Made by a program: the position numbers and the translations under genes. A DNA stretch of 24,534 bases from a virus (lineage: Duplodnaviria > Heunggongvirae > Uroviricota > Caudoviricetes), in the IMG/VR virus record IMGVR_UViG_2698536676_000006; one strand, 5' to 3'. Positions 150-24,534 of the stretch are shown one piece after another. The first letter of the stretch is position 1, and each line of letters begins with the position of its first letter. The notes below the pieces were generated by a model. It searched no databases. It was not told the DNA's origin and saw only the letters and a program-made list of their open reading frames with translations.

Positions 150-204
150 TGGAGCACCTCAAAAACACCATCATACACTAAATCAGTAAGTTGGCAGCAT
201 CACC
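1..204 (-). mobile_element. IS1 left-end fragment (terminal inverted repeat plus insA 5' region); element continues left of the window
   Basis: Bases 1-204 are the exact reverse complement of 24331-24534 and match my recollection of the first 204 bp of IS1 (GGTGATGCTGCCAACTTACTGAT...CACCGCTTCTCAACC). Confidence 0.9.
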
Positions 205-3795: not shown

Positions 3796-3805
3796 TGTTT
3801 CTCAC

Positions 3806-5222: not shown

Positions 5223-5225
5223 GAT

Positions 5226-5980: not shown

Positions 5981-6218
5981 TCGGCCCGGTGGTGTCCAGG
6001 AGAACTTTTTCGCCTTTCTGGTCAGTTACACCGATTACATTAATTCTTTTCGTAAATTCGGTACTTTCCTTTGAAGCGTTTTCAAAACGCTGTTGTACCG
6101 ATGGATTGACGGTAAATCGCGATACCAGCGCAGAAACCGGGATATTGTTAAGCGACGCCTGCTGCGTCATGTAGCAGCCCAGCTTGTTACGGGCATTATC
6201 TGACATCACCAGATTCAT
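5907..6218 (-). pseudogene. Major capsid protein gpN, N-terminal fragment (about 90 codons), junction with gpV at roughly 5930-5980
   Basis: RFTVNPSVQQRFENASKESTEFTKRINVIGVTDQKGEKVLLDTTGPIARTNTSYDGTDRR parallels the P2 gpN N-terminus; homology stops and the frame overlaps the gpV fragment, implying loss of N(3')-M-L-X-Y-K-R-S-V(5'). Confidence 0.7.
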
Positions 6219-6241
6219 AAAAAATTTGCTCCTTTGTCTTA

Positions 6242-7078: not shown

Positions 7079-7232
7079 AGTTTTTGCCCCTCTGACTGGT
7101 TCTTCAGTCATGATGGCAAAGCGTAACAGGCTGATACAAAGGGCTTTTGTTGTAAGAAAACGGCCAGAACAGGGGGTTAAGGAGAACGGTTTCGCGCGCG
7201 GGTAATCTTCCTGTAATTACTCAGGGGGAGCA

Positions 7233-8495
7233 ATGATTCAGGACGCTTTTGTGCGCCAGCGTGCGCGGCAACTTTACTGGCAGGGTTATCCGCCCGCAGA
7301 AATATCACGTCTGATGGGAATAAACCCGAACACGATTTATGCGTGGAAAAAACGCGACCAGTGGGATGAAACGCCCCCCGTGCAGCGTGTCACGCAGTCC
7401 ATCGATGCGCGCCTCATCCAGCTTACTGAAAAACAGAATAAAACAGGCGGTGACTTTAAGGAAATAGACCTGCTGACCCGGCAGCTTAAAAAGCTGCATG
7501 ATGGCCAGCCGGATGTGATGGCCGCAGGAAAGAAAGGCCGGGCGAAAAAACTTAAAAATCATTTCACGCCGGAACAGATTGCCGCACTGCGGGAAAAAAT
7601 CATCAGCAGGCTGGAGTGGCATCAGCGGGGCTGGTTTGACTCCCTGACACTTTGCAGGGAAGCCGGGATACGTAACAGGATGATCCTGAAATCCCGACAG
7701 ATTGGGGCGACCTGGTATTTTGCACAGGAAGCTCTGCTGATGGCGCTGCGTGACGATGTGGCGCAACCTTACCAGCGTAACCAGATTTTTTTGTCTGCGT
7801 CGCGTCGTCAGGCGTTCCAGTTTAAAAGCATTATTCAGAAGGTCGCGGCTGAAGTTGATGTGGAGCTGAAAGGGGGCGATAAAATCATCCTCTCCAACGG
7901 CGCAGAGCTGCATTTTCTCGGCACTTCTGCTGCGTCGGCACAGTCCTATACGGGCAATTTTTATTTTGATGAATTTTTCTGGGTCAGTCGCTTTGCTGAA
8001 CTGCGCAAGGTGGCTGGCGCTATGGCAACCCTCAGCGGACTGCGGCGCACCTACTTCTCCACGCCATCCACCGAAACGCACGAGGCGTACGCCTACTGGA
8101 ACGGCGACCGCTGGAACGAGAAAAAGGCCTCGCATAAACGCCAGCGTTTTTCTGTGGACTGGAAAACGCTGCATAACGGGCTTATCTGCCCTGACCGGAC
8201 TTGGCGGCAAATTGTCACGCTGGAAGATGTGGTTAATCACGGCTGGAAACACACCGATATCGACGAAATTCGTGATGAAAACACCGAAGACGAGTTCCTC
8301 AATCTCTATATGTGTGAGTTTGTCCGCGAAGGGGAATCGGCATTTAACCTGAATATCCTGATTGGCTGCGGTGTTGACGGATACGACGACTGGAAAGACT
8401 GGAAACCTTTTGCTCCCCGCCCGATGGGGAATCGTCCGGTATGGATTGGGTATGACGCAAACGGCAGCAGTGGCAACGGCGACATGCCAGCTTGA
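7233..8495 (+). pseudogene. Terminase ATPase subunit (P2 gpP-like), C-terminally truncated
   Basis: 420 aa with N-terminal ...LYWQGYPPAEISRLMGINPNTIYAWKKRDQWDE; P2 gpP is about 590 aa as I recall. The ORF ends shortly after VWIGYDA, and portal Q, cos and the tin/old region expected between P and A are absent. Confidence 0.75.
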
Positions 8496-8560
8496 TGTTG
8501 GTGGAGCCGTCGTCGATACAAATTTTCATGTCGCTTTTCCTTATGTTGATTAATTAATCG

Positions 8561-8670
8561 TTTACGGGATTCTGAAATCCCGTTTTTGCCTGTTTTATGC
8601 GCGCTTCATATATCGCGGCGCGTTTTTTGCTCATTTACGGGATTTGTGAATCCCGTTTCTGTCTGTTTTT
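8561..8670 (+). repeat. Two diverged direct repeats (8561-8596, 8634-8670), each an 8-bp-stem hairpin ACGGGATT-N4-AATCCCGT followed by a T-run
   Basis: Read directly: tttacgggattctgaaatcccgtttttgcctgtttt and tttacgggatttgtgaatcccgtttctgtctgttttt. Confidence 0.6.
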
Positions 8671-11428: not shown

Positions 11429-11434
11429 AGTGAT

Positions 11435-11800
11435 TTACTTCGTCATGCCATTCAGGGTGTCGCGGCAGACTGTAGCCAGCCGCTGAATTTCCAGCACGGT
11501 GTCTTCTGTGTCGGCATGGCGATGTGTGATGCGGATGCTGTCGGCAATCACATCGACGATTGCAGAGGATGGGCGCTGGTAAATGCCAATAACGGACGGG
11601 GTGCCACCTTCAATGCGGTAAAGCCTGTAATTTCCCTCGTGGCTGTCAATCATGTAGCGACCATCAATAACAATCTTTCCGTCAGCGAGCTGCGGTACAG
11701 GCAGGGATTTCAGGTACATGTCATAACGATCACGCACGCGAGCGGCAAGATCTCGTTCTGTGTTGAGCAGGTATTCAAGAAAGTCGTTGGCGAGAATCAT
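11435..11800 (-). CDS. Hypothetical early-operon protein (121 aa) directly upstream of gpA
   Basis: ATG with AGAGGA Shine-Dalgarno; 6-bp gap to the gpA start. Confidence 0.6.
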   Translation of the reverse strand: MILANDFLEYLLNTERDLAARVRDRYDMYLKSLPVPQLADGKIVIDGRYMIDSHEGNYRLYRIEGGTPSVIGIYQRPSSAIVDVIADSIRITHRHADTEDTVLEIQRLATVCRDTLNGMTK

Positions 11801-11872
11801 TGCGGCAATCCTCTTGTTACAGATGTGCGAAGGCCTCCCGCCGCAAGGTGCAGGAAAGGCCCGGAACAGGAA

Positions 11873-12103
11873 TTAATGGAGTTTGTTTTGCTGCTGGATG
11901 AGCTGTTGAAGCTCGTGCAGATCATCCGCCAGATAGCTGAAAACAGAGGCGGAATAAATGTTTGATAGTGCGTGGCTGCGCTCATGCAGCATATTGATGT
12001 GCATGATTTGCGCGACGCGTGATGCGCGGGAAAGTCTGTGGTTGATTTCAGTCTGGATGTGACGACGCTCCGCGATAGTGCGGTGCTGTTTGCGGTCTGC
12101 CAT
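11873..12103 (-). CDS. Hypothetical early-operon protein (76 aa, basic, no Cys)
   Basis: ATG at 12101-12103 with AGAGG upstream; no recognisable domain. Confidence 0.5.
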   Translation of the reverse strand: MADRKQHRTIAERRHIQTEINHRLSRASRVAQIMHINMLHERSHALSNIYSASVFSYLADDLHELQQLIQQQNKLH

Positions 12104-12425
12104 GGTGTGGCCTCTTTGCTCGGTGATAGAAATAACTCACCATCCAGAGTTGAGAATCTCGGGGTGGCGAGACGTACAGGGTTCTCAACACCGGAGAGCA
12201 AAGAATCCGGCCCGACCGAAGTCGGCCCCGTACGCCCCGCCATAATTCTGACGCGAAAAAGACGTGGCAATACAGTGCGCACAAAAAAACCGCTTGCGCG
12301 GTTATGCGCTTTGCTCTGTATCGGGTTGAGAATCCCGGCACCCGTTTTATGAGCTGCAGCGGAAATGTAACCTGACCGATTGAGGCATGGCAAGCGGTTT
12401 TTTTGTGTGTGCATGTTCTGGTTTC
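12104..12425. other. Structured non-coding gap inside the early operon: nested direct and inverted repeats; candidate ncRNA or regulatory/origin-like element
   Basis: GTTGAGAATC[T/C]CGG at about 12150 and 12325, inverted partner GTTCTCAAC at about 12175; CTTTGCTCT / AGAGCAAAG copies; 18-bp inverted repeat cacaaaaaaaccgcttgc at 12281-12298 and 12391-12408; hairpins TCTCG-N6-CGAGA, CCGGA-N9-TCCGG, GGCCCGAC-cgaa-GTCGGCC. Confidence 0.4.
12283..12310 (-). terminator. Candidate rho-independent terminator (AACCGC-gcaa-GCGGTT then TTTTTTTG on the minus strand)
   Basis: Plus strand reads caaaaaaaccgcttgcgcggtt; on the minus strand the hairpin is followed by a 7-T run. Confidence 0.5.
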
Positions 12426-12725
12426 TTACTGGTTCAGAAAAAAATCAAAAACGTTATCGATGCGTTGCAGCAGCTCTTGCTGCATTGCTTCCGGCGTTTC
12501 CGGTTCGCCAGGTGCCCCCAGCGTTGCGCAGAAATCAGCGATTTCATGATGGAGCGTGAGGCGAATGGCAGGAGCCGTGGTTCTGGCGTGCTCCAGCTGA
12601 TCCAGCAGTGCCAGCACAGCAGACGGCGAGAGCATTGCGCGAAATGCCAGTAATTTTTGAGGCGTTGCCATTCGTTGCAGGGCAAATGCCAGTTCGTGTA
12701 GCTTCTGGTGGTTGATGGTGCTCAT
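12426..12725 (-). CDS. Hypothetical protein (99 aa)
   Basis: ATG with GAAGGAAG Shine-Dalgarno; start overlaps the upstream stop (ATGA). Confidence 0.55.
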   Translation of the reverse strand: MSTINHQKLHELAFALQRMATPQKLLAFRAMLSPSAVLALLDQLEHARTTAPAIRLTLHHEIADFCATLGAPGEPETPEAMQQELLQRIDNVFDFFLNQ

Positions 12726-12988
12726 GCTCTGGCTTCCTTCAGTAGCTGGTTAAACATGTGAGTAAGTGGATTGCTACACCCGAACAGCATCGGGTTTACG
12801 TGGTAAGAAGCCTGGCCTCCTGTTTTGCGAGCGCGACCACCTGTGCTGCGGTTTGTTCTGATGACTAAGCCGCCGCGCCAAAGTCGGCGTAACTCAGCAT
12901 TAATGGCTGTGGTTGGGGTATTCAGTGCTGCGGCGATCTCTCCGCCGCTACACCCCGGATGAGTAGCGATGTAGTCCAGAATGGTCAT
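12722..12988 (-). CDS. Putative winged-helix DNA-binding protein (88 aa)
   Basis: MTILDYIATHPGCSGGEIAAALNTPTTAINAELRRLWRGGLVIR looks like an HTH / winged-helix; AGGAG Shine-Dalgarno; ATGA overlap with the upstream gene. Confidence 0.6.
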   Translation of the reverse strand: MTILDYIATHPGCSGGEIAAALNTPTTAINAELRRLWRGGLVIRTNRSTGGRARKTGGQASYHVNPMLFGCSNPLTHMFNQLLKEARA

Positions 12989-13188
12989 CTGCGTGGCTCC
13001 TGTACCTGTCGGATAAGATTCACCCGCGCCACGTTGGTGGCGCAGAAGTAAGTGCCGTCAGTGAGGTAGATGTGGTGTGCATCCTTTTCCGAACGATGTT
13101 TGTCGATAGTGGTAATCAGGCGTTCGTCGACCTCGTATTCGCGCCCTCTGGAGGTAAAGCGAACGACGGGAAAATGCTTAATTGCCAT
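12985..13188 (-). CDS. Hypothetical protein (67 aa)
   Basis: ATG with AAGGGGG Shine-Dalgarno. Confidence 0.5.
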   Translation of the reverse strand: MAIKHFPVVRFTSRGREYEVDERLITTIDKHRSEKDAHHIYLTDGTYFCATNVARVNLIRQVQEPRR

Positions 13189-13242
13189 TGCGCCCCCTTT
13201 GTCCAGTAACCCTATGCGTTAAATACGGCACATTGCGCGTCA

Positions 13243-13629
13243 TCAATGAATACAGCTTGAGAGCGTTCTATCAGGCGGAGATTTGTCAGAAGCTCTGACT
13301 CTTTTGTGTGGTAAGGCGTTATCAGGTATTTGCCGTGCAGTTCGGCAATAATGGTGTATTGCAGCATCATTGCTGAACCAAGAATATAAAATGCAGCGTC
13401 CAATGCTGGACGGATTCATGGCTGCAACTGTTGACTGTGTTTTAAGAGTGTCGATTTCTTTGCTCTGTTCCTCAATAACTTTGGCTGCTTCAGAGGCGGC
13501 TATTGCGATGGTCAGTGCGTAAAGCGCTGCCATATGTTGATTATCTTTCTGGGCTGCCCTGGACAGCTTGTCTTGCTCTGCTGACACTATTTTTAATGTA
13601 TTGATAATATTTTTTTCTTTTGCGTTCAT
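13243..13629 (-). CDS. Hypothetical protein (128 aa); N-terminal half coiled-coil-like, C-terminal half possibly frameshifted
   Basis: Strong start (GGAG then ATG at 13627-13629); a 63-aa ORF in another frame (13212-13403, TTG start) overlaps the 3' half. Confidence 0.45.
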   Translation of the reverse strand: MNAKEKNIINTLKIVSAEQDKLSRAAQKDNQHMAALYALTIAIAASEAAKVIEEQSKEIDTLKTQSTVAAMNPSSIGRCILYSWFSNDAAIHHYCRTARQIPDNALPHKRVRASDKSPPDRTLSSCIH

Positions 13630-13721
13630 TTTATATCTCCGTTATTTACGTGTGCGAATACCTCCGCGAATGCGGATAGTTTTCAGGTTTTCGGGTTTAA
13701 TCTGGTGTTTTGTTTAAGCTG

Positions 13722-13835
13722 TTATTTGTCAGTAAAAAAGCGTTCAATCTTTTTTACTGAATGAATAATTCGCATAATCCCAATGGCGCAGGCCACCGAA
13801 ATAATCAGAACAAGCCATGAGATAAATATACTCAT
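13722..13835 (-). CDS. Small hydrophobic peptide (37 aa, MSIFISWLVLIISVACAIGIMRIIHSVKKIERFFTDK), predicted single transmembrane helix
   Basis: Not in the ORF track (under 60 aa). Hand-translated: ATG at 13833-13835 overlaps the stop of the 80-aa gene upstream (ATGA coupling); a 20-residue hydrophobic stretch is followed by a basic tail. Confidence 0.4.
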   Translation of the reverse strand: MSIFISWLVLIISVACAIGIMRIIHSVKKIERFFTDK

Positions 13836-14074
13836 GCGATATTCCCCAGCTTATACGGTTCAATGTGTTCCCCGCATTCTGCGGCACAGATCAGCTCGGA
13901 AAGTTCGTTAAGTGCATCCAGATCATCAGCGTAAAAAGCAACGTCATACAAACTCCGGATTGCCCTGGTCAATGAGTCACGGGCTGCATGTTCAGCATGA
14001 GCGCCTGATGCACTTAAGCGAAAATAAAATCGTTCAAGTGCTTTGTTAATGAGAGTTTTATATTCTTTGCCCAT
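13832..14074 (-). CDS. Hypothetical protein (80 aa)
   Basis: ATG with AAGGG Shine-Dalgarno. Confidence 0.55.
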   Translation of the reverse strand: MGKEYKTLINKALERFYFRLSASGAHAEHAARDSLTRAIRSLYDVAFYADDLDALNELSELICAAECGEHIEPYKLGNIA

Positions 14075-14085
14075 CGCAACGCCCT

Positions 14086-14364
14086 TTAATCTGCTTTCTG
14101 AATTTCAGCTTCTGAATCCATACAAATAATTTCGATATAGGGTTCATCGCCATTAACCTGACGTGCCTTTTCAGCTTCGCTAATGATTTCTCGTACGGTC
14201 TGGTACGGAAGCTCCACAGTCAGGCGCGTACCGTTCAGATAAACGTAAGTAGTTGCGTTTTTTTCGGATGGAACAACTCCGTCAATGGCTGATGCGCGTA
14301 ATAACAGTTCACCGCGAAAATCAATAAAACGGATAAATACACCTTGTGCATGCTCTTTGGTCAT
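14086..14364 (-). CDS. Hypothetical protein (92 aa from the ATG at 14362-14364)
   Basis: AGGTG Shine-Dalgarno 5 nt upstream of that ATG; the tool's 14424 start is TTG and overlaps the upstream gene. Confidence 0.55.
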   Translation of the reverse strand: MTKEHAQGVFIRFIDFRGELLLRASAIDGVVPSEKNATTYVYLNGTRLTVELPYQTVREIISEAEKARQVNGDEPYIEIICMDSEAEIQKAD

Positions 14365-14374
14365 AAAGCACCTG

Positions 14375-14725
14375 TTATAAATCAGCCTGTTTAATAAAAC
14401 TTTGCCCGCGAAGCAGACGATCAACCGTGCGAAGTGCTTCGTATAATGTGAAATCCTGCCCGAAGTGATTGTCGCCGCAGTTCAATGCAAAAATGCGGTT
14501 TCCGGTAAACGGATTGCGTGGGCATTTGTGGATCACGATTCCAGCTTTCTCAATCAGCCAGGCATGCTCGCCGATTTGTTTTACAGCGTGGCCATCCGGT
14601 GTTGCGTGCGTCTCGTTCAGGTTATAGCGACTGTTACTACGTGATGCACTGGTAGCGACGTGGTGTACATGGCGTTCTACGCTATTACGAAATTTGGAGT
14701 ATGGATTATTAGCGTTTTTTTTCAT
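14375..14725 (-). CDS. Hypothetical protein (116 aa, His/Cys-containing)
   Basis: ORF with ATG start in operon context. Confidence 0.55.
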   Translation of the reverse strand: MKKNANNPYSKFRNSVERHVHHVATSASRSNSRYNLNETHATPDGHAVKQIGEHAWLIEKAGIVIHKCPRNPFTGNRIFALNCGDNHFGQDFTLYEALRTVDRLLRGQSFIKQADL

Positions 14726-14746
14726 GATGGTGCTCTGTTCATTGTT

Positions 14747-14950
14747 TTAGCTGTTAGCCAAAGCGTCTTTTAACATCGCCACAAGGTTTACTTCAGGCTT
14801 TTCCATTTTGGCGCGTTTGGGGCGGATAATAATTCGACCGTCAGCCAACATCTTTTTGCATGTATTAAGAGGGATACCTGTTATCTCTGCATATTTCTGC
14901 AGGGATACATAGGGGGCATTCACATTGATATTGATGGTTATACCTGACAT
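14747..14950 (-). CDS. Cox/Apl-like excisionase-type HTH regulator
   Basis: 67 aa; ...APYVSLQKYAEITGIPLNTCKKMLADGRI... resembles the P2 Cox HTH region as I recall it; correct position in the early operon. Confidence 0.6.
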   Translation of the reverse strand: MSGITININVNAPYVSLQKYAEITGIPLNTCKKMLADGRIIIRPKRAKMEKPEVNLVAMLKDALANS

Positions 14951-14966
14951 CCCACTAGCCTCCTGA

Positions 14967-15173
14967 TCAGGAAGATTTGTTTTGTTCTTTCTGGGTTAGC
15001 TCTAGGCCGCGAAGGAAGATCATGCGCGCCATGTTAGAGGATGAGCGTTGTTCTTTAGCTGCCATTTCATCAATGACGGCTCGCTCCTCGAGGGACAGCC
15101 GAAGTGCCAGTCTTGGACCTGTGGCGGTGTTACGCGGAATGCGTGATCTGGTATCGTGAAGAACTTGTTTCAT
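14967..15173 (-). CDS. Putative ribbon-helix-helix regulator, first gene of the early leftward operon
   Basis: 68 aa; LALRLSLEERAVIDEMAAKEQRSSSNMARMIFLRGL fits the RHH beta-strand/helix pattern; no clear Shine-Dalgarno. Confidence 0.5.
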   Translation of the reverse strand: MKQVLHDTRSRIPRNTATGPRLALRLSLEERAVIDEMAAKEQRSSSNMARMIFLRGLELTQKEQNKSS

Positions 15174-15248
15174 AGTGGTATATTGTGATCATCTAATAGC
15201 TCGTGAAATCATTTGGTATCAAAAAAGATACCTGTCAAGGTTTTTTGT
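15174..15248. promoter_or_regulatory. Immunity-switch intergenic region between divergent early operon and repressor; 18-bp palindrome GGTATC-aaaaaa-GATACC (15215-15232) as candidate operator
   Basis: Perfect palindrome read directly; a TTGACA hexamer on the minus strand (15233-15238) abuts it. Confidence 0.5.
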
Positions 15249-15653
15249 ATGAAAAATGATATTGGTCAGCGGTTGCGTGAGGAAAGGGAAAGATTGGGAC
15301 TTAGTCAAGTTGCCATGAGCGACATTGGTGGAGTCAAAAAGCTAACTCAGCTTAGATATGAGAAAGGAGATAGCTTTCCTGATGCTGCGTATTTGGCAGC
15401 GCTGTCTCGTTTTGGCCTTGATGTTCAGTATGTTGTGTTGGGAATTCACTCACCTGAAACTTATAACGATGATGAGCAGGAGTTGATTACTCGCTTTCGA
15501 GCAGCTTCGTTAGATGTGAAAAACGCGGTGATTGGGGCTTTAAAAGGTGCGATCAGTGAAAAGGAAACTCAGCCATCAGGACGTGAGTTAAATATTTCTG
15601 GTGGTAATAACCGTATCGCTGGTCGTGACTATAACGAAACTAAGGGTAGGTGA
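15249..15653 (+). CDS. CI/C-type immunity repressor (XRE-family HTH)
   Basis: MKNDIGQRLREERERLGLSQVAMSDIGGVKKLTQLRYEKGDSFPDAAYLAALSRFGLDV is a canonical XRE HTH; ATG at 15249 preferred over the tool's TTG at 15213; integrase-proximal, divergent from the early operon. Confidence 0.75.
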   Translation: MKNDIGQRLREERERLGLSQVAMSDIGGVKKLTQLRYEKGDSFPDAAYLAALSRFGLDVQYVVLGIHSPETYNDDEQELITRFRAASLDVKNAVIGALKGAISEKETQPSGRELNISGGNNRIAGRDYNETKGR

Positions 15654-15668
15654 TAGTAGGGAGGTGAC

Positions 15669-16319
15669 ATGGCCGTCAACTCAAACGGTTCAAACAATCG
15701 CGTTGCTGGGCGTGATTTTCACGAAAAGAATATTCAGATAGAGCGATATGATGGTTCTCATACCGTCAATATCGCAATCCCTTCGAATAATGATGATGAC
15801 GATCGCCCTTTGCTTAAGGCTCAGCGTAAGGAGCTAAATAGCTTGGTTGCTGCTATTGCAGAAGCTAGCAATACTGAAGCGTTTATTATTTGGCAAAAAG
15901 TACATGCGGAGATTGGTGTAGCTGGTATTGATGATATGACAGTAAATCAATATAAAACAGCGGAGAGTTTTCTGCATGCAATGCTTGAGCGATGTAAAGA
16001 TCATGATGCCTGTAAGGCTCTTGTAAGTTTATTACTACGTAACAGTGAAGACTGTGGACTTCGACAAAAACTTCTGCGGTATTGCCATATCAATTTCGGT
16101 ACAGGACGTTTAAACGATCTTACTCGTTCTCAGTTACAGTCTGCATTGTCGTGGTTAGAGCAACAATCGGCATCAAGCCACACAGAGAGTTCGACCTTAC
16201 CAGAAGTCCGACTTCGTGCTTCAGAATTAATCCGACTTTATCCAAAAGAAATAATATTCTTTATCTGCGTAGGGGTTTTGGTAGGCGGTGTCATTTCTAG
16301 GGCGTTTTTTAATTTGTAA
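15669..16319 (+). CDS. Cargo gene: 216-aa protein with C-terminal transmembrane anchor (candidate superinfection-exclusion / abortive-infection protein)
   Basis: GGGAGG Shine-Dalgarno; C-terminal IIFFICVGVLVGGVISRAFF hydrophobic helix; N-terminal SNGSNNRVAGRDFHE echoes the repressor C-terminus ISGGNNRIAGRDYNE; lies where P2 has repressor and integrase adjacent. Confidence 0.65.
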   Translation: MAVNSNGSNNRVAGRDFHEKNIQIERYDGSHTVNIAIPSNNDDDDRPLLKAQRKELNSLVAAIAEASNTEAFIIWQKVHAEIGVAGIDDMTVNQYKTAESFLHAMLERCKDHDACKALVSLLLRNSEDCGLRQKLLRYCHINFGTGRLNDLTRSQLQSALSWLEQQSASSHTESSTLPEVRLRASELIRLYPKEIIFFICVGVLVGGVISRAFFNL

Positions 16320-16348
16320 TCTTACTTGAGCTAAATTGAGGTAATGAT

Positions 16349-16696
16349 ATGAAAGTAAAAAAGGTTCAACTATTAGTTACTTTTTTATCTATGTTTTCTT
16401 TTTCCGCCGTCGCAATGCCTTTTAAAACTATTGAACGTGAGAGTTTCAATGGGGTATGGCCATTTAATACTGATGAGGTTCAATTACAGTGTCTTGATGG
16501 TAATCCTTATGTGATGAATTTTGACGATAATAAGTTATATGCACTTACAGGTTTGGCTCGAATAAAAGGTAAAACATTTGGTGCGTTACCGTTAGATAAC
16601 AATAATCCATTTTGGCTAGATAATGATGCCGCCCCAGGGTTAAAAAAGAGCCTGGGGGATGTCACTAAGGCTGCATTTGATTTATGTGATAAGTAA
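16349..16696 (+). CDS. Cargo gene: small secreted protein with signal peptide and two Cys
   Basis: MKVKKVQLLVTFLSMFSFSAVA-MP signal-peptide-like N-terminus; GAGG Shine-Dalgarno; Cys in QCLDG and DLCDK. Possibly DUF2511-like; unverified. Confidence 0.65.
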   Translation: MKVKKVQLLVTFLSMFSFSAVAMPFKTIERESFNGVWPFNTDEVQLQCLDGNPYVMNFDDNKLYALTGLARIKGKTFGALPLDNNNPFWLDNDAAPGLKKSLGDVTKAAFDLCDK

Positions 16697-16701
16697 CTAA
16701 A

Positions 16702-17703
16702 ATGTCGGTTCGTAAGATTCCATCAGGTAAATGGCTTTGCGAATGTTATCCCTACGGGGCATCGGGAAAACGCATTCGTAAACAGTTTGCGACAAAAAGT
16801 GAGGCGCTCTCTTATGAGCGCCGTTTAATGAATAGTAGAGTTGGAGACGAGTTTCAAGATGGTTCTGGTCCTCGTCTTTCTGAGTTGATTGCTCGTTGGT
16901 TTGAGATGTACGGTAAAACCTTGTCCTCTGGTGCAGAGCGCAAAGTCAAACTTGAGGCGATTTGTTCCAGGCTGGGAGATCCATTTGCTTCTCAGTTTGA
17001 CAAAAATATGTTTGCCACTTATCGGGAAAGAAGGTTATCAGGAGAGTGGAATCCCAAGGGGAAGAAAAAACTTAGTGAAGCAACCGTTAATCGCGAGCAG
17101 TCATATCTACATGCTGTTTTTGCCGAACTGAAGCGCCTTGGGGAGTGGTCTGGTGAAAACCCCCTGACTGGTATTCGCAAGTTTCGTGAGGAAGAAAAGG
17201 AACTGGCGTTTCTGTATGTAGATGAGATTGAACGCCTTCTGATTGCGTGTGATGAGTCACGGAATAAAGATTTGGGGGTTGTTGTCCGTATTGGGCTTGC
17301 GACTGGTGCTCGGTGGAGTGAAGCAGAAGGGTTAAAGCAATCTCAAGTACTGCCCGGTCGAATCACATTTGTTAAAACTAAAGGAAAGAAGAACCGCACT
17401 GTACCGATTTCACCTCAATTGCAGGCTATGCTTCCCAAAAAACGAGGAGCGCTATTTTCACCATGTTATGAGGCTTTTGACGCTGCAATTAAGAGAGCGA
17501 AGATCGAGCTTCCTGATGGGCAATTAACTCATGTGCTACGTCACACGTTTGCCAGTCATTTTATGATGCGGGGCGGAAATATTCTTGTGTTGCAAAAAAT
17601 ACTGGGGCATAGCGATATAAAAATGACTATGCGTTATGCGCATTTTGCTCCAGGTCATTTAGAGGCTGCTGTTGAATTGAACCCTTTTGACAATAGAGGG
17701 TAA
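16702..17703 (+). CDS. int: P2-type tyrosine integrase
   Basis: 333 aa; TGARWSEAEGLK, ITFVKTKGKKNRTVPIS, HVLRHTFASHFMMRGGNILVLQKILGH, YAHFAPGHL align with P2 Int as I recall it. Confidence 0.9.
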   Translation: MSVRKIPSGKWLCECYPYGASGKRIRKQFATKSEALSYERRLMNSRVGDEFQDGSGPRLSELIARWFEMYGKTLSSGAERKVKLEAICSRLGDPFASQFDKNMFATYRERRLSGEWNPKGKKKLSEATVNREQSYLHAVFAELKRLGEWSGENPLTGIRKFREEEKELAFLYVDEIERLLIACDESRNKDLGVVVRIGLATGARWSEAEGLKQSQVLPGRITFVKTKGKKNRTVPISPQLQAMLPKKRGALFSPCYEAFDAAIKRAKIELPDGQLTHVLRHTFASHFMMRGGNILVLQKILGHSDIKMTMRYAHFAPGHLEAAVELNPFDNRG

Positions 17704-17964: not shown

Positions 17965-18846
17965 TCACGGGGTGCAATGAGCCGCAATCTCCAGCCTGGC
18001 AATGCCGAATCGAACGTGTCGCCTCCAGCATAGAGAACCAGGCCGCTTTGCCTGTTTTCCGGTACTCTTCCGGGAAGGGTGGCCTGCTGAGCAAGTTGTA
18101 ATGCTCTGGCCGCCCTTAGTACAAAGTTGCTTAATTCGTGCAATCACCTCATCTCTGTACTTCTGGTGTCCGCGCATAGCCCTTGGATGGGCAATTCTGA
18201 AACAGATTGTATTACCTGTTTTGAACTCCCACAGCTTCCCCGGAATGACTGAAGAAGTCTCATAACCGCCCAGCTCAGTAAGCACCTGTTTAATGATGTA
18301 GTCTGTTCTCCGGGCTCCGGATGCAAAGATCATGAAATCAGGCTCAAGGTGTTTAATTTGTACCGCCAGCAGCTTCAGCGAGGCTAATATGACTTCCTGC
18401 ACTTCATTTTGAGGGCGATTGAGAGGGGTCAGTCCGTCGTAATCCCACGCCAGTAGATTGGCATACACGATAGCCTGAGGAGGAATATTAAGCTCCCGGG
18501 CCAGCCTGAAATGATATTGCGTGAAGCGGCTACGTGATTTGAGGTTGGTGGTGCCATCATTTTGTACCGGAAGATGTTTCCTGTAACGATCTACAGCTTC
18601 TTCAACCACCTGCCCGATGGTGACGTCAGGCATAAGTCCCAACACCCGTGATATCGTATTCTTACCATTCAGCGTATTCCAGCCTGCGGTTTCACGTCTA
18701 ACCAGCATGATTTTTACCGGTGAATGCCAGTATTCTTCAAACGGCACGGGTAAAAAGACGCCTGAGTATTTATCTTCATTCAGGTTAAATGACTGGGCGT
18801 CAACTTCCTGTAATATCCGTTTGTACGCGTCTAATAGCCTTTCCAT
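17965..18846 (-). CDS. Hypothetical protein (293 aa) between the tRNA fragment and the P4-type integrase; C-terminal 50 aa low-complexity, possibly non-native
   Basis: Long ORF, no family recognised; Cys/Arg/Ser-rich tail. Confidence 0.55.
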   Translation of the reverse strand: MERLLDAYKRILQEVDAQSFNLNEDKYSGVFLPVPFEEYWHSPVKIMLVRRETAGWNTLNGKNTISRVLGLMPDVTIGQVVEEAVDRYRKHLPVQNDGTTNLKSRSRFTQYHFRLARELNIPPQAIVYANLLAWDYDGLTPLNRPQNEVQEVILASLKLLAVQIKHLEPDFMIFASGARRTDYIIKQVLTELGGYETSSVIPGKLWEFKTGNTICFRIAHPRAMRGHQKYRDEVIARIKQLCTKGGQSITTCSAGHPSRKSTGKQAKRPGSLCWRRHVRFGIARLEIAAHCTP

Positions 18847-18926
18847 TCTTCAATCCTGCCCCGTAATAAAAACACCTTCAGATATATATTATTTTCATGA
18901 TATCAATCAGATATATGAGGATAAAT

Positions 18927-20126
18927 ATGCAAAAATCCTTCCGATTCACCAATTCATCCATCAAAGCCCTTCCGGCAAACACAGATACCCGATCTACAGA
19001 GCTTGAGGTATCCGATACTGAGGTCATTGGCCTCAAATGCCTCTCAGGTCGAACGGGTAACAAACGTTTCCTCCTGCGCTACACATTCCACGGTACCAAA
19101 AAAAGTATCAGTATTGGCAGATTCCCTGAAATTGATGTGGGGACAGCCCGTCAGATAGCTCGTCGTCACAAGGAGGCGATTGCACTGGGAAATGACCCTA
19201 AGGCAGAACGCGATAATTATCGTGCTATGCCAACGCTTAGTGAGTTTTTTCACCAGACCTATGTTCCGTTCATCAAACGCCATAAAAAGTCCTGGGATAA
19301 GGATGTTCAGCGTTTCACGCAATACATTGAACCTTGTCTGGGGAAGATACGTTACTGTGACCTTCGGGCCCGGGAAATCCAGCAGGTGCTTTTCGACATG
19401 CTTGAGGGTCGTATTCACGGGCAGCAATATGCGCCGTCTACCTGTAACAGAGCCCTTGCTATTCTGAAAACGATGGGGCGTTATGCGTTGCGACAGGATG
19501 TGCTGGAAAAGAATGAAGCCGATAAGATCCCTTTACTGAAAGAGAATAATCAGCGGACGCGCTTTTTTGATGCTGATGAGATCAGGCGCATTCTTGACGC
19601 TGCTACCCAATATCCCAACAAAGCTGCCGGGGGATTGATAGCCATGTTGTTGTTAACCGGTACACGCAAAACAGAAATGCTTAATGTCAGGCATGAACAT
19701 ATCGACCGGGCCAATCGTACTCTGTTCATTCCTTATACAAAAAATGGTCGCAGTCGGACGGTATATCTAAGCGATGCCGCATTATCGATTATTGATGCTA
19801 TCCCACGAGTTGGCAGTAATCCGTATCTGTTCGCCATTAAGGATAATGGCAAACCGATATCGGAACCCCGATGGGCATATGAAAAAATACTGGCACAGTG
19901 CGGTATAGACAAGAATGAAGTCTGTTTTCACACCACACGTCATTCTGTTGCCTCTTTACTGGTTTCGAGTGGTCAATTCAGCCTGTATGACGTTAAAGCC
20001 CAACTGGCGCATGCCAGTATTCAGAGTACAGAACGTTACGCGAAATTAACACCGGAACGTATGCGTCAGACAGGGCAGGGAGTGACTGACCTGCTTCTGA
20101 ATACTGCGGCTACGAAGCAGATGTGA
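18927..20126 (+). CDS. int: P4-family tyrosine integrase (genomic-island type)
   Basis: N-terminal arm-binding domain (...GLKCLSGRTGNKRFLLRYTFHGTKKSISIGRFPEIDVGTARQIARRHKEAIALGNDPKA) and catalytic region (...TRHSVASLL...ERYAKL); ATG at 18927 with GAGG Shine-Dalgarno preferred over tool start 18897. Confidence 0.85.
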   Translation: MQKSFRFTNSSIKALPANTDTRSTELEVSDTEVIGLKCLSGRTGNKRFLLRYTFHGTKKSISIGRFPEIDVGTARQIARRHKEAIALGNDPKAERDNYRAMPTLSEFFHQTYVPFIKRHKKSWDKDVQRFTQYIEPCLGKIRYCDLRAREIQQVLFDMLEGRIHGQQYAPSTCNRALAILKTMGRYALRQDVLEKNEADKIPLLKENNQRTRFFDADEIRRILDAATQYPNKAAGGLIAMLLLTGTRKTEMLNVRHEHIDRANRTLFIPYTKNGRSRTVYLSDAALSIIDAIPRVGSNPYLFAIKDNGKPISEPRWAYEKILAQCGIDKNEVCFHTTRHSVASLLVSSGQFSLYDVKAQLAHASIQSTERYAKLTPERMRQTGQGVTDLLLNTAATKQM

Positions 20127-20162
20127 CTACTTTTTAGCAAACTATAAATATGGAGAATGAGG

Positions 20163-20399
20163 ATGCATTTAAAATGCCCACAGTGTGGCAGTTGTAATAC
20201 ATTGATAAGTTCAGCAGGAAAACTGCCATCGATAACCGATAATAAACACTCTGGGTATATTAGCCTGGAGTTTTTACCTGAAATACTGAAAGAAATTATT
20301 AAGGCTATTAAAAAACTATTTGGATTCCTTGAACAGTGTGAAAGGAATAATGCTCCAGTGCTTATCTGTATGGACTGTGGATATTATGAAAGAATTTAA
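20163..20399 (+). CDS. Small zinc-ribbon protein (CPQCGSC ... CMDCGYYE)
   Basis: Two CxxC pairs about 60 residues apart; GGAG Shine-Dalgarno; has its own terminator. Confidence 0.6.
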   Translation: MHLKCPQCGSCNTLISSAGKLPSITDNKHSGYISLEFLPEILKEIIKAIKKLFGFLEQCERNNAPVLICMDCGYYERI

Positions 20400-20446
20400 A
20401 TAGAAAACCAATAACTGTAAATAATAGTTATGCGGATGTATAAAAA

Positions 20447-20476
20447 CCTCGATACGTTAATCGTATCGGGTTTTTT
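20447..20476 (+). terminator. Rho-independent terminator (CGATACG-ttaat-CGTATCG plus TTTTTT)
   Basis: Read directly from sequence. Confidence 0.6.
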
Positions 20477-20494
20477 GTTTATGAGGATTATTCA

Positions 20495-20866
20495 ATGAAA
20501 TTTGTCTCGAACTGGCAAGACCTGCCGTCGCTCCTTCTTCCGGAGTCAGTAATGAGTCTGTTGAAAACAGAGCTGGTACTCCCATTTGAAGATGAATACT
20601 CTGCAATGAGTTTCTGGGATGAAGTCGGGGTGACATTAATATATGTCGAGCCCGATGATGTACCTGAAGATATTAAAGCGCAGGTATTAAATGTGATTCA
20701 TCAGTTAATTGCAAATCCAGAATTTGTAGTCCGTCTGACAGATGACTATTACCTGATGCTTTCTGTTACGGAAGATAACGGGAACGGTATTTATCTGTTA
20801 TTTCACCCCGATTGCCCTCTGAAGGGTATTGATTTATTAATTTCTATGGCCGAATCACGCTATTAA
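20495..20866 (+). CDS. Operon gene 1: acidic 123-aa hypothetical protein
   Basis: GAGGA Shine-Dalgarno; Asp/Glu-rich; AT-rich codon usage. Confidence 0.65.
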   Translation: MKFVSNWQDLPSLLLPESVMSLLKTELVLPFEDEYSAMSFWDEVGVTLIYVEPDDVPEDIKAQVLNVIHQLIANPEFVVRLTDDYYLMLSVTEDNGNGIYLLFHPDCPLKGIDLLISMAESRY

Positions 20867-20891
20867 ACACAAGCAAAACCAGGAACGCAAA

Positions 20892-21425
20892 ATGAGTAAA
20901 TCAAAATTAGTTAAAAATAATGTTGAGTCAGTTTCGAAGGAGATTAAAAATGAGGCAGAGGTTATTCATGAAAATCTCAGTGCAGATGAACAAACATTAT
21001 CTGATGTAAAAGACTATCAGTTGCTCATTGAAACAGGCCAGGCAGAAAAAATCAGTCCTAAGGCAAGTGGTATGCTGACATGGCAACTGGCGATATCAGA
21101 GGTGGATAATGAACTTTATCTTCGTCTGGTGGCAAATGGCTGTGGAGGGTTGTTCTCTAAGGACTGGATCTCACTTTCAAAGATTGCAACTGTTCTGGAA
21201 ACACAACCTGCTACCGGCTTCTCATCCGGAGTATTCAGGCCGCTATTCAAAGGGGCAAGCGCCAACAATGCAGGTTTTCTGGCTGCTGTTTTACGCTCCC
21301 CGGATATATGTCTGCTGGAGGCACATCCAGAGAAGTTATTTACTCATGTATTATACCCGGACTGGAGGGAGCGGTTGAATAAACTTAATACGATCAGTAG
21401 CCAGGAAAAGATTACAGAGGATTAA
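20892..21425 (+). CDS. Operon gene 2: 177-aa hypothetical protein
   Basis: AGGAA Shine-Dalgarno; 25-bp gap from gene 1. Confidence 0.65.
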   Translation: MSKSKLVKNNVESVSKEIKNEAEVIHENLSADEQTLSDVKDYQLLIETGQAEKISPKASGMLTWQLAISEVDNELYLRLVANGCGGLFSKDWISLSKIATVLETQPATGFSSGVFRPLFKGASANNAGFLAAVLRSPDICLLEAHPEKLFTHVLYPDWRERLNKLNTISSQEKITED

Positions 21426-21497
21426 TTTATTTCCTGCACTGTTATACAACCAGAAATCACCACACACCACTATTTACTTTCTAAAGGAAAATTTATT

Positions 21498-21932
21498 ATG
21501 CAAACCCAATATGCCTTAAAACAGGCAGGATTAACTCTGCCTGTTACTAAAGAATTTCAGCAGCATATTACTACTCTTCTGGCAAATCAGGTTTTACAAA
21601 AAATAACTGAGGCAGTGGTTATTAATTTCCGTGATCCGGACTACAGTGCAGAATCCGGGGGCTTTCATCCCGTTGAAATACGGTTTATCCGTAAGAATAA
21701 TGAATGGTATTTTGATTATGTCACAGATTTTAGTTATATGGGGCGTGTCTACCCTGAGCTGGAAAAAGAAATTGATTTTTGCTGGTCGGGGAATTATGTC
21801 TTCCATTATCTGATTGGGGATATTTCACTGGCAGCAGAGAGGAATGAACTCTGGTCCCTGTGGGAGCGTAATTTTATGGAGTATCTCTCTATGGGGATTT
21901 ACCGGGTAACGGTAACTGTGGAAAGTTGTTGA
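21498..21932 (+). CDS. Operon gene 3: 144-aa hypothetical protein (Trp/Tyr/Phe-rich)
   Basis: AAAGGA Shine-Dalgarno; 72-bp gap with no terminator before it. Confidence 0.65.
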   Translation: MQTQYALKQAGLTLPVTKEFQQHITTLLANQVLQKITEAVVINFRDPDYSAESGGFHPVEIRFIRKNNEWYFDYVTDFSYMGRVYPELEKEIDFCWSGNYVFHYLIGDISLAAERNELWSLWERNFMEYLSMGIYRVTVTVESC

Positions 21933-22045
21933 CCCGTTATGAACAGGAAGAAAGCGGGCGGCTTTGTAATCTACTGCATGTGGCGTGCATCACAGCATGG
22001 AGATGATGTCTCTTTTTCCTAGCTGTTCGCATAAACAAGTGCAGA

Positions 22046-22076
22046 CACGGGGGATCTCAGATCCCTCGTGGTTTTT
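22046..22076 (+). terminator. Rho-independent terminator closing the three-gene operon (CACGGGGGATCT / AGATCCCTCGTG then GTTTTTG)
   Basis: Read directly from sequence. Confidence 0.55.
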
Positions 22077-22233
22077 GCCCCCTATGGAGCATTCTCCTGT
22101 AGCAGGGTGATAACGGTTAATCCATTACCCCAACTACAGTATTACACCGGTAATAAATGTTCATGAATACAGTTAGTTATGTGGGTTTTGAGGTGGGCTA
22201 TGTCATCGTTGACGATAACTGAAGGTTTTACAG

Positions 22234-22461
22234 ATGTATAAAACTCGCGGTGAAAGGATCGCAGAAAGGCTGTGCTGGATATTACTTCAACTGTATACCG
22301 GTAATACGGTATCGGTTAATGATATATGTCAGCGTTTCGCGGTCAGTCGCCGAACCGGACAGCGTGATTTGTTGAGAGTTGAAACTGTAACGGAAACTAT
22401 TTCACCTGGAAGGGTAAGGCTGGCAAGTTTGATAAGGGAACGAGTTAGACGAAATTTTTAA
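22234..22461 (+). CDS. Small HTH protein (75 aa) resembling the N-terminal DNA-binding domain of a WYL/DeoR-type regulator
   Basis: ERIAERLCWILLQLYTGNTVSVNDICQRFAVSRRTGQRDLLRVE parallels [40 protein letters not shown] of the WYL protein at 23423-24325. Confidence 0.5.
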   Translation: MYKTRGERIAERLCWILLQLYTGNTVSVNDICQRFAVSRRTGQRDLLRVETVTETISPGRVRLASLIRERVRRNF

Positions 22462-22496
22462 TCGAATCCATATCAATACTATAAAATATGAAAATT

Positions 22497-22522
22497 AACG
22501 GGAGTAAATATATACTCCCGTT
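22497..22522. terminator. Hairpin between convergent genes (AACGGGAGTA-N6-TACTCCCGTT), T-rich on both sides
   Basis: 10-bp perfect stem read directly. Confidence 0.5.
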
Positions 22523-22542
22523 ATAATGCAACCTTTTTTTAA

Positions 22543-23361
22543 CTACTCAAATGATATTAATTTAGGTGCGACAGTGTTTTTATGATGTGTTGAATTTGCA
22601 AGATTAATAATATCATGAAATGATTTCATGTCGTCGTCAGTGATTTCTAGGGCTGGATCAGCTAAATCGGCACAGGTAACATTTAACCAGTGTGTTAATG
22701 AATCAATCCTGTTTGAAGTAATATATTCAGTGTGACCAATATTCCACTTCCAGTTGATTATCCGAGCAGGTCTGAATCTCACCTCCCGAACCCCAATTGG
22801 CGTTACTGACTCTACGAGAGGGTATATCGTGTTAAGTACTTTATCATGTTCACTGTAGATATTTAAATGCCCCATTTTTGAACCGTAAGCCATTTTCATT
22901 ATGTTCTCTGTATAACTTGTTATTGGGGTGGCTCCGGCCATAGAGATTGTTAAGAGAATATTATCATTTTTAATATAGGGTAATGTATTGTTTATTAATC
23001 GAGTCCCTAAAGAATGACCCATTATGATCACATTACGCTTTTCTTTAACGTATATCTCGTTTATTACGTGTGCTAATTTTTCTCTGTTATTAACTGCTGC
23101 TTTCGTTGCATTATACCAGGCCTGACGCGCTTTAAATGGAATGGAGATTGATGACAATAAAGGAGATGTTCTCAGGGGGAAGAGAGTATATAACCCCCAC
23201 TTGTTCGCTATGTCAGAACTTAATATGGATAGTAGATTTGCCGATTCCCATTTATAGTATCTGACATCAAGGCCACACCCTGCTTTAATTCGGTTAAACC
23301 ATGATATATCATTTTCGGTCAGAAACCCTGATACAACAAGAAGAACCGGGCATTTTTTCAT
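22543..23361 (-). CDS. Alpha/beta-hydrolase-fold serine hydrolase (esterase/lipase-like), candidate effector
   Basis: 272 aa; IIMGHSLGTRL carries a G-x-S-x-G nucleophile elbow; GGAG Shine-Dalgarno; AT-rich. Confidence 0.7.
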   Translation of the reverse strand: MKKCPVLLVVSGFLTENDISWFNRIKAGCGLDVRYYKWESANLLSILSSDIANKWGLYTLFPLRTSPLLSSISIPFKARQAWYNATKAAVNNREKLAHVINEIYVKEKRNVIIMGHSLGTRLINNTLPYIKNDNILLTISMAGATPITSYTENIMKMAYGSKMGHLNIYSEHDKVLNTIYPLVESVTPIGVREVRFRPARIINWKWNIGHTEYITSNRIDSLTHWLNVTCADLADPALEITDDDMKSFHDIINLANSTHHKNTVAPKLISFE

Positions 23362-23422
23362 GGTAACTCCATTTTTTAGCTTACAAAAATAGCACTCAAT
23401 GAAAATTATATTATCCGTGTCA

Positions 23423-24325
23423 TTACGGGGCGTTACTTGGCTGGGTGTAACGTTTCAGTGCGGATTGTATATCTTCAGCAAGTTGTTGACGGATTGAGGC
23501 CGGTTGTATTACTTCGACATCCGGTATCCAGTATTTCATTAAAGGCATTATCTGATCTGTGTGTGTTACACGTGATATCACCAGTAAATCGCCAGACCGG
23601 GAAGTATGAATTATTTCCTGTCCTGGCAATAGATGACGGTGGGTAAACCACGGAGCAACATGTGCGGAAACTGAAATAAGAGCTTCGATAAGGTCTTCGC
23701 TATACCAGATACCATCTGTCTTTTCTATTTTTTCATTAATTTCGGGGATTATCCTGAAAGAGATATTACTCATGCAAACGTCTTTGACAGATGAGATAAC
23801 AAAGCTTTTTAATGTACTGTCATGGGCGGCAGCGAGATACCACAATCCGTTGTCATTAACCAGTCTGTATGGCTCAACAGCCCGAAACTCTTTATCTTTG
23901 TAATTAAAATTTACTTTCTTCTGTGACAGGATGGCATCGGATAATACATTCAGAATTGACATGAATGATCCGCAGTTTTCGTATGGACGTTGTTTTATCA
24001 GAAACGGGTTGTTTTTCGTGTTACCTAACAAAATACTCAGTAGTCTGTCATCCCAGCGAGGGAACAGCCCTTCAATACCCAGGATGCGCGTGAAATGACG
24101 TAAATCAGCATTGCTGCGTTGACCGAGAACACCGTCAGACAGGCGATAGCGACCATTTTGTCGAATCAGATTAAGATAGGACAGGCGCTGAGTAAGATCA
24201 CGACGGATAGTTTTTTCGCAAACGTTAAATTCCTCAGATAACTCCCGGACGGCTAGTGACTCACCATTGTTCAGGCGAGTTAATATCAATCCGAGTCGAT
24301 ATCCAAGTTTATCGTGCTTACCCAT
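23423..24325 (-). CDS. WYL-domain transcriptional regulator (HTH-WYL architecture, BrxR/CapW-like)
   Basis: 300 aa; N-terminal HTH ([35 protein letters not shown]), central LWYL motif ([12 protein letters not shown]); ATG lies 5 bp from the IS1 end. Confidence 0.75.
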
Positions 24326-24330
24326 TCATT

Positions 24331-24534
24331 GGTGATGCTGCCAACTTACTGATTTAGTGTATGATGGTGTTTTTGAGGTGCTCCAGTGGCTTCTGTTTCT
24401 ATCAGCTGTCCCTCCTGTTCAGCTACTGACGGGGTGGTGCGTAACGGCAAAAGCACCGCCGGACATCAGCGCTATCTCTGCTCTCACTGCCGTAAAACAT
24501 GGCAACTGCAGTTCACTTACACCGCTTCTCAACC
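24331..24534 (+). mobile_element. IS1 left-end fragment; element continues right of the window
   Basis: GGTGATGCTGCCAACTTACTGATTTAGTGTATGATGGTG...CACCGCTTCTCAACC matches the IS1 5' end. Confidence 0.9.
24386..24534 (+). CDS. insA: IS1 InsA, 5' partial
   Basis: GTG GCT TCT GTT TCT ATC AGC TGT CCC..., the InsA N-terminus. Confidence 0.75.

Follow-up and report, generated by a model that had tools for sequence, protein, structure and literature searches.

The question raised by this locus is what two neighboring genes do for the DNA that carries them, and whether they can still do it where we found them. They lie at one end of a 24,534-bp stretch catalogued as viral (Caudoviricetes; IMG/VR record IMGVR_UViG_2698536676_000006), which as a whole we call the window. 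The first gene encodes a 300-residue transcription factor with helix-turn-helix (HTH), WYL and WCX domains (23423-24325, minus strand) and the second a 272-residue DUF726-like alpha/beta serine hydrolase (22543-23361, minus strand), both taken from the list of open reading frames (ORFs) and assigned with Pfam. A preliminary description made from the letters of the window had proposed a lipase-like effector under its own WYL sensor, with an IS1 element in place of the native promoter. Our own reading, to which we give roughly an even chance, is that the two genes are a cargo cassette of a mobile island, made up of a DriD-like WYL activator and a lipase-like conflict effector, and decapitated here by IS1.

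The gene pair and its control region

Comparison among genomes indicates that the regulator and the hydrolase are a maintained, operon-like cassette ending in a terminator and not chance neighbors, since their order persists in diverged alleles and in other genera and both genes are under purifying selection. Of 5426 complete E. coli genomes, 317 contain the 2.2-kb cassette region, in every case on the chromosome, and 187 have at least 80% of it. The order is kept where the hydrolase alleles have diverged to 86, 84, 82 and 66% identity, and the segment occurs as well in Intestinirhabdus alba, together with the entire island, and in Franconibacter helveticus, where the regulator frame is shortened. 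The ratio of nonsynonymous to synonymous substitution rates (dN/dS) ranges from 0.07 to 0.28 for the hydrolase and stands at 0.20 for the regulator. The ORFs themselves are exactly as first described (300 and 272 residues, co-oriented, 61 bp apart, a GHSLG elbow at residues 115-119 of the hydrolase, and a hairpin after it). The spacer (23362-23422, minus strand) is free of terminators and contains the ribosome-binding site (RBS) of the hydrolase, AATGGAGTTACC 5' of the ATG, and an isolated TATAAT hexamer. The RBS is kept in three diverged alleles and the TATAAT in two of the three, and a promoter scan of the cassette region gave none that passed in the spacer. The hairpin terminator (22496-22523; 11 pairs and a T-run) is common to the hydrolase gene and a convergent gene for a 75-residue HTH protein, and across three alleles its stem is kept while its loop varies. 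Neither an Rfam family nor a tRNA was matched at the cassette region.

IS1-free homologues, which the preliminary description had proposed to look for, were found, and with them the native upstream region was recovered. In IS1-free E. coli it is a 379-bp intergenic region in which GGACAGGATGAGTCC occurs twice, as exact copies in inverted orientation at a distance of 96 bp. The pair of sites is retained, as GGACAGGTTGAGTCC and GGACAAGTTGAGTCC, in a diverged E. coli allele that otherwise cannot be aligned between the genes. A convergent GACAGGWTGNGTC pair, 83-111 bp apart, lies 5' of the regulator gene at six loci from four lineages that include Cedecea, Yersinia and a metagenome, and in each of the six loci these two are the only matches with zero or one mismatch. 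In all five lineages a -10-like hexamer (GAAAAT, GAAAAT, CATAAT, GATAAT and GACAAT) stands exactly 12 nt downstream of the proximal site. The -35 position falls within the proximal site and has no consensus match, and the E. coli -10 agrees with the consensus at only four of six positions. A search of the islands for further operator copies found none above chance level. One operator-like copy with a single mismatch, GCCAGGTTGTGTC, lies 164 bp 5' of hsdM in IS1-free strains (22917-22929 of the IS1-free locus L001); it is oriented the wrong way, lacks a -10 at the conserved spacing, and is probably there by chance.

The box bound by DriD is CGAC-N7-GTCG (PMC10853764), and in promoters without a -35 the sites for DriD overlap the place where one would be (PMC13004042). 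The candidate operator has the same GAC-N7-GTC geometry. Given this geometry, the fixed 12-nt spacing to the -10 and the missing -35, a combination resembling that of DriD promoters, our analysis favors a DriD-like activator as the role of the regulator.

In the window this control region is gone. Up to 24330 the sequence is 100% identical to that of the IS1-free genome NZ_CP024232, and the two part at 24331, where GGTGATGCTGCCAACTTACTGAT starts the left end of IS1. This left inverted repeat is followed by the start of insA (24331-24534, plus strand), and the element is transcribed away from the regulator and runs past the end of the window. As first described, IS1 stands 5 bp from the regulator start (the ATG ends at 24325), and by comparison with NZ_CP024232 these 5 bp (24326-24330, minus strand) are a remnant of the native leader. 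The IS1 stretch matches 73,334 places in 4970 of the 5426 genomes and carries the RefSeq label IS1 family transposase. The window holds no operator match at all, and a Shine-Dalgarno-like GGAT of the native leader has also been lost at the junction.

An identical junction, annotated as IS1 family transposase, is present in FORC_031 and four other complete genomes. In these five, IS1 is followed directly by hsdS, and about 10 kb is deleted relative to locus L001, including genes for proteins of 108, 866 and 212 residues, an HTH gene, an integrase, two hypotheticals and hsdM. Since the window ends inside IS1, we infer the deletion on its own DNA from these five genomes. The original claim that IS1 replaced the promoter and RBS is right in that the native region has disappeared, but the event was larger than a replacement, being coupled in the five genomes to this deletion reaching hsdS. 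With both operators, the promoter and the ribosome-binding region removed, the regulator in the window is very likely unexpressed and without a target. This agrees with the first half of the earlier suggestion that expression may be abolished or driven from IS1. For the second half there is no usable hybrid promoter, as the -10 belonging to the outward TTGGCA of IS1 would lie in the first codons (GTAAGC, one match in six). Low constitutive expression of the hydrolase is possible, since the spacer retains its RBS and the isolated TATAAT. Next to the cassette, the deletion in FORC_031 removes hsdM and leaves hsdS, a YecA-family gene, hsdR and an M48 peptidase gene (L003 14257-16076), so that the adjoining type I restriction-modification (RM) system is probably inactive in the FORC_031 lineage.

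The family of the regulator

Two questions about the WYL protein had been left by the preliminary description, whether its WYL fold is real and whether it is of the BrxR/CapW type. The fold assignment stands. Pfam places HTH_DeoR at residues 10-61 (2.9e-8), WYL at 124-183 (1.4e-10) and WCX at 213-290 (1.7e-9), all above cut-offs, and a profile built from 16 homologues matched PafBC (6sj9; 7.8e-11) and DriD (8tp8 and 7tzv; about 4e-9) in the PDB and no others, over the WYL-WCX part. The profile was required for this, as a single-sequence phmmer search of the PDB gave zero matches. The canonical WYL motif is present, and its residues G160, W162, Y163 and L164 are invariant across the 16 homologues.

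The BrxR/CapW identity does not stand. The RWHVR motif is absent and N-G-L-W-Y-L-A occupies that position; the Pfam models specific to BrxR (WHD_BrxR and BrxR_CTD; PF26109 and PF26107) are unmatched, although both detect the true BrxR at locus L008; and neither the CapW nor the BrxR structures turn up in the PDB profile search at E<=1. In PADLOC-DB 2.0.0 the regulator matches only generic WYL models. On the strength of the motif, the unmatched models and the PDB profile, we assign the regulator to the PafBC/DriD-like branch and not to BrxR/CapW.

PafBC of actinobacteria and DriD of Caulobacter are activators of transcription that respond to single-stranded DNA (ssDNA), and both control DNA-damage regulons. 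They have the same order of winged HTH, WYL and WCX domains as our regulator and the same canonical motif, and theirs are the sole solved structures that the family profile finds. The likeness to DriD extends to the candidate site in the promoter of the regulator, placed over a missing -35 at a set distance from the -10, and to the DriD contacts with ssDNA, of which six of nine are conservatively retained when mapped onto the regulator (Y142, K145, Y163, K173, F175 and Y208). On the other hand the similarity is remote and limited to WYL-WCX, and the cassette has two inverted sites about 95 bp apart where DriD has one. The setting differs too, being a chromosomal DNA-damage regulon in the one case and a mobile island with a single adjoining cargo gene in the other, and activation and ssDNA binding are putative in the cassette.

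The alternative that survives best, and which we regard as possible while leaning away from it, is that the WYL protein is a repressor like CapW or BrxR, holding a toxic lipase off until a cue from ssDNA or phage frees the operator. CapW and BrxR, the defence-associated wHTH-WYL-WCX proteins characterised so far, are repressors of CBASS, BREX and other defence systems; they bind palindromes in their own promoters and are released by ssDNA (PMC11662680), and the regulator shares their three-domain layout. Its proximal site overlaps the core promoter, as would also suit repression. In E. coli that promoter looks activator-dependent, with no -35 and a -10 of four matches in six. The arrangement of the locus is likewise familiar from CapW and BrxR, in that a WYL factor lies directly upstream of a co-oriented putative defence effector in a defence island, downstream cargo varies, and palindromic sites in the promoter of the regulator suggest autoregulation in the cassette as well; the partner gene, however, is no known defence system. 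At locus L006 the regulator is split by a frameshift and the hydrolase is intact, much as capW deletions are tolerated. The protein itself also tells against a repressor of this kind, as it carries GLWYL in place of RWHVR and lacks the BrxR Pfam domains, and its profile finds the activators PafBC and DriD and not CapW or BrxR.

The hydrolase and its relatives

The family of the hydrolase, for which a profile search had also been proposed, could be settled in outline. The protein scores 28.5 bits against DUF726 (PF05277; 9.3e-7) where the cut-off is 22.6, over model positions 191-314 of 343 only; LCAT and DUF900 are matched as well, and RefSeq labels it a DUF726 domain-containing protein. In an alignment of 57 sequences G12, W38, S117, G119, D173, L176, G190 and H210 are invariant and G115, H116 and L118 are present in at least 90%. 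By this conservation the catalytic triad is Ser117-Asp173-His210, with the GHSLG elbow around the serine and a Gly12-Phe13 oxyanion turn. An AlphaFold model made with the 57-member alignment has the alpha/beta-hydrolase fold (pLDDT 86, pTM 0.85). A prediction from five near-identical sequences had given a pLDDT of 44, and was rerun with the 57 family members for that reason. A profile search of the PDB returned weak lipase matches only.

The family is rare. When 1.84 billion cluster representatives were searched exhaustively with HMMER, 162 reached E<=1e-3 and only 19 reached E<=1e-10. A word-indexed search retrieved close E. coli alleles only. Residues 42-75 of the hydrolase are a variable and poorly predicted insert. 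As a candidate membrane anchor, the insert between W38 and W82 was rejected; its hydrophobicity is 0.88 in the window copy, with a family median of 1.16 and values of 1.6 or more in six of 57 members. The protein has no signal peptide, its N-terminus being the first beta-strand of the fold.

Among DUF726, DUF900 and LCAT hydrolases are yeast Mil1, human TMCO4 and the archaeal cinquedea, which is a bactericidal phospholipase of the DUF726/DUF900 type (bioRxiv 10.64898/2026.06.10.730825). The window protein shares with these the GHSLG elbow and the Ser-Asp-His triad and passes the DUF726 gathering score; it differs in matching only the C-terminal third of the model and in being minimal, with 272 residues and no transmembrane region. 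Among known defence effectors the phospholipases, such as the patatin-like CapV of CBASS, offer the nearest parallel, being hydrolases carried as cargo of mobile elements and possibly aimed at the membrane to abort infection. However, the patatin fold of CapV and the HAD fold of the hydrolase in the P4-hotspot system with a transmembrane protein are both unlike the DUF726-type alpha/beta hydrolase, and the cassette has neither a cyclic-nucleotide synthase nor a transmembrane partner; its control would be transcriptional. Rst_Hydrolase-3Tm was considered as a known counterpart of the cassette and was ruled out as HAD-like.

More distant homologues of the hydrolase (22-32% identity) were examined in ten contexts, all of them on mobile or variable DNA and none with an adjoining WYL gene. 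They include an island with a P4-type integrase, a variable region by type I RM genes and integrase fragments, a contig (L008) where a BrxR-controlled system lies 2 kb from the gene, a Vibrio plasmid where the gene lies just 3' of parAB, two prophages where it sits on the opposite strand amid tail genes, and a lambdoid prophage where it is directly 3' of the antiterminator Q. The partnership of WYL regulator and hydrolase is thus specific to the enterobacterial island. It had been conceded at the outset that the idea would fail if the hydrolase proved to be a conserved metabolic esterase found without the WYL gene. It is indeed found without that gene in ten of ten distant contexts, but always as mobile or variable cargo, which argues against a conserved metabolic esterase.

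Two of the IMG/VR homologues with 31-32% identity (L038 5896-6684 and L040 5935-6693) occupy classical prophage moron positions, one on the opposite strand among tail genes and the other between antiterminator Q and the lysis/terminase region. Some of the distant hydrolases are paired with small membrane proteins. Homologous 71-residue glycine-zipper membrane peptides adjoin two of them (L008 3343-3558 and L012 2796-3011), downstream in one and upstream in the other, and such a peptide may be a partner in that branch of hydrolases; the E. coli cassette has none. As a conserved partner of the hydrolase in general the 71-residue neighbors were rejected, as two are homologous and the third, like the E. 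coli 75-residue HTH protein, is unrelated.

The island, its cargo slot and a possible role

In IS1-free genomes the order is pgsA, tRNA-Gly/Cys/Leu, a hypothetical gene, a P4-type integrase, genes for 123-residue, 177-residue and DUF2787 proteins, the convergent cassette and a divergent gene for a 108-residue protein, with another integrase module and the type I RM genes further along. The integrase-DUF2787 backbone adjoins the tRNA-Leu. FORC_031 has Hhe and a pair of DUF262 genes further on as well. A survey of E. coli defence islands lists the interval between pgsA and yecA as its hotspot 18 (Hochhauser 2023; PMC10121019 supplement), and with type I RM, DUF262 and Hhe genes close by, the neighborhood is a defence island, in support of the earlier interpretation.

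Orthologues of the regulator occur in Cedecea lapagei (66% identity), Yersinia canariae (56%) and a metagenome contig (47%), in islands that keep the backbone of integrase, DUF2787 and a 76-residue HTH gene. What follows the regulator is different each time. In Cedecea (L024) it is a 144-residue protein whose gene overlaps the regulator stop codon, in the metagenome locus L028 a 326-residue protein after a 12-bp gap, and in Yersinia canariae the slot is empty (slot coordinates L024 7905-8339; L028 7913-8893). The 144- and 326-residue proteins gave no match in either Pfam or PADLOC. As orthologous regulators in like islands carry unrelated downstream genes, the comparison shows that the regulator is conserved and that the cargo slot behind it is swappable. 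The Cedecea island also has an LRAT/NlpC-P60-like 153-residue protein (L024 9497-9958) just 5' of the 76-residue HTH gene, and Septu (PtuAB) nearby.

The hydrolase allele of L005 and L006 (8001-8852) differs from the window copy at 31% of protein positions with a dS of 2.7, while the adjoining DUF2787 gene is 93% identical with a dS of 0.10. On this difference in dS an old hydrolase allele has recombined into an otherwise near-identical island, which fits cassette swapping. The convergent 75-residue DeoR-type HTH protein (22234-22461, plus strand) has no RefSeq annotation in the genomes examined. It gives weak Pfam matches to HTH_11 and HTH_DeoR, has a dN/dS of 0.15 and is 43% identical to the 76-residue HTH_DeoR protein at the same position of the Cedecea island; it is a conserved backbone gene of this island family.

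A second alternative is that the regulator governs the island or a DNA-damage response and the hydrolase is a passenger moron of use to the host or the element in some way other than anti-phage defence; it might help lysis, serve as an esterase in virulence or colonisation, or act as a toxin between bacteria. We consider this distinctly unlikely. The solved relatives of the regulator, PafBC and DriD, do run DNA-damage regulons, and orthologues of the regulator occur without cargo or with unrelated cargo, but no wider regulon is visible in the islands, where extra operators do not exceed chance. The spacer TATAAT, or a TTGAAT-17-TAGAAT pair, might give the hydrolase an independent promoter, whereas the translational coupling of the Cedecea cargo and the 12 bp that separate the L028 cargo from its regulator argue for co-expression. 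The prophage homologues at moron sites include one in the Q-to-lysis slot, the home of late-expressed cargo such as toxins; the hydrolase itself has no signal peptide and no secretion-system context. A third alternative, that a YafY-like regulator controls a common esterase of housekeeping or metabolism and that conflict has no part in it, is very improbable, for although RefSeq names some regulator copies 'YafY family protein' and the fold is similar to many metabolic esterases, the family is very rare, the cassette is present in only 6% of complete E. coli genomes and is often lost to insertion sequence (IS) elements, and none of the ten distant contexts is a metabolic operon.

Loss to IS elements is indeed common. 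In an even sample, 15 of 45 island-bearing genomes (about one third) share an IS1-linked deletion that took the regulator together with 462 bp at the start of the hydrolase gene. Other strains have IS1 within the regulator gene, IS3 in the 3' end of the hydrolase gene, IS1 in the region of the 75-residue gene or IS1 373 bp upstream. Altogether there are at least six independent insertions or IS-linked deletions (IS1, IS3 and IS903B) in the 3-kb cassette region (L029, L030, L031, L032 and L004). Frequent loss of this kind is typical of accessory conflict genes but is no proof of function.

Positions 1-17703 of the window are a degraded P2-like prophage in which tail fibre and assembly genes and baseplate I/J are followed directly by the gpO scaffold, a shortened terminase gpP (420 residues) abuts the gpA replication endonuclease, and a P2-type integrase lies at 16702-17703; most of the head, lysis and tail-tube genes are missing. 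The ORFs of the island (17965-24325) each match a small, high-numbered PHROG at near-identity (phrog_35015, for example, over its full length at E 1e-193), and a hydrolase that is 100% identical is present on a 24,484-bp provirus contig in IMG/VR. We do not take the PHROG matches as a sign of phage origin, and read them instead as small families that arose when the island was swept into prophage predictions beside the P2 remnant. Just 3' of the island integrase is an 80-residue ORF (20157-20399, plus strand) with two CxxC pairs and a weak match to the PhnA zinc ribbon; it has no RefSeq annotation and is called as a gene of 81 residues in the metagenome-derived L006.

Put together, the cassette would work as follows. 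It is cargo of an island that has a P4-type integrase and whose insertion site is the cluster of tRNA genes between pgsA and yecA. The native regulator dimer would bind the two inverted sites 5' of its own gene, the proximal one at the -35 position 12 nt before a weak -10. The WYL pocket would bind a ligand, most likely single-stranded nucleic acid from phage replication or DNA damage, and the ligand-bound regulator would turn on its own gene and the second gene. The hydrolase, presumably cytoplasmic and of the DUF726/DUF900/LCAT clan, would then cleave an ester by its Ser-Asp-His triad, most likely in a membrane lipid, and act as a conflict effector through abortive infection or exclusion. 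In the window the IS1-linked deletion has taken operators, promoter and RBS together, leaving a regulator without a binding site and a hydrolase with at most low constitutive expression. On sequence grounds the cassette is a plausible anti-phage candidate. A bolder version, which we put forward tentatively and rather doubt, is that it represents an undescribed single-effector class of anti-phage system in which an ssDNA-activated DriD-like WYL activator drives a swappable effector, in E. coli a lipase of the DUF726 type by which an infected cell is killed or arrested, so that the cargo DUF726 hydrolases would be a new family of defence effectors.

Several points count against our interpretation. 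The GACAGGWTGNGTC motif was derived from the same sites that it then finds, and at the metagenome locus L028 the distal site is embedded in what appears to be the terminator hairpin of the integrase. The evidence for activator polarity consists of the position of the site and the missing -35, and a repressor could sit at the same place. Three of the DriD contacts with ssDNA (R178, R207 and R288) are not conserved in the regulator, and as the slot in Yersinia canariae is empty, the regulator may have another primary role. The hydrolase insert is only mildly hydrophobic, and we make no claim of membrane association. The hydrolase is unmatched in PADLOC-DB 2.0.0 and NCBIfam; the literature gave neither a link between DUF726 and phage nor any report on this hydrolase, and no evidence for lipase activity or toxicity and no database or experimental support for a defence role was found. 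Finally, the cassette is dispensable and often lost.

What we have, then, is a cargo cassette under WYL control that lies in a defence island and whose effector belongs to a family so far without a link to immunity. For the strain behind the window the practical consequence is that the module, disconnected by IS1, should not count as an active system. For the native cassette the regulatory model can be tested directly, as the operator is conserved and stands at a fixed spacing from the -10. If the native cassette does protect against phage, the regulator would be a first activator-type WYL sensor driving a defence gene, the arrangement of a regulator with a swappable slot behind it could be mined for further effectors, the 144- and 326-residue slot proteins for example, and the DUF726-type alpha/beta hydrolases would be a new family of immunity effectors, with eukaryotic relatives of unknown function.

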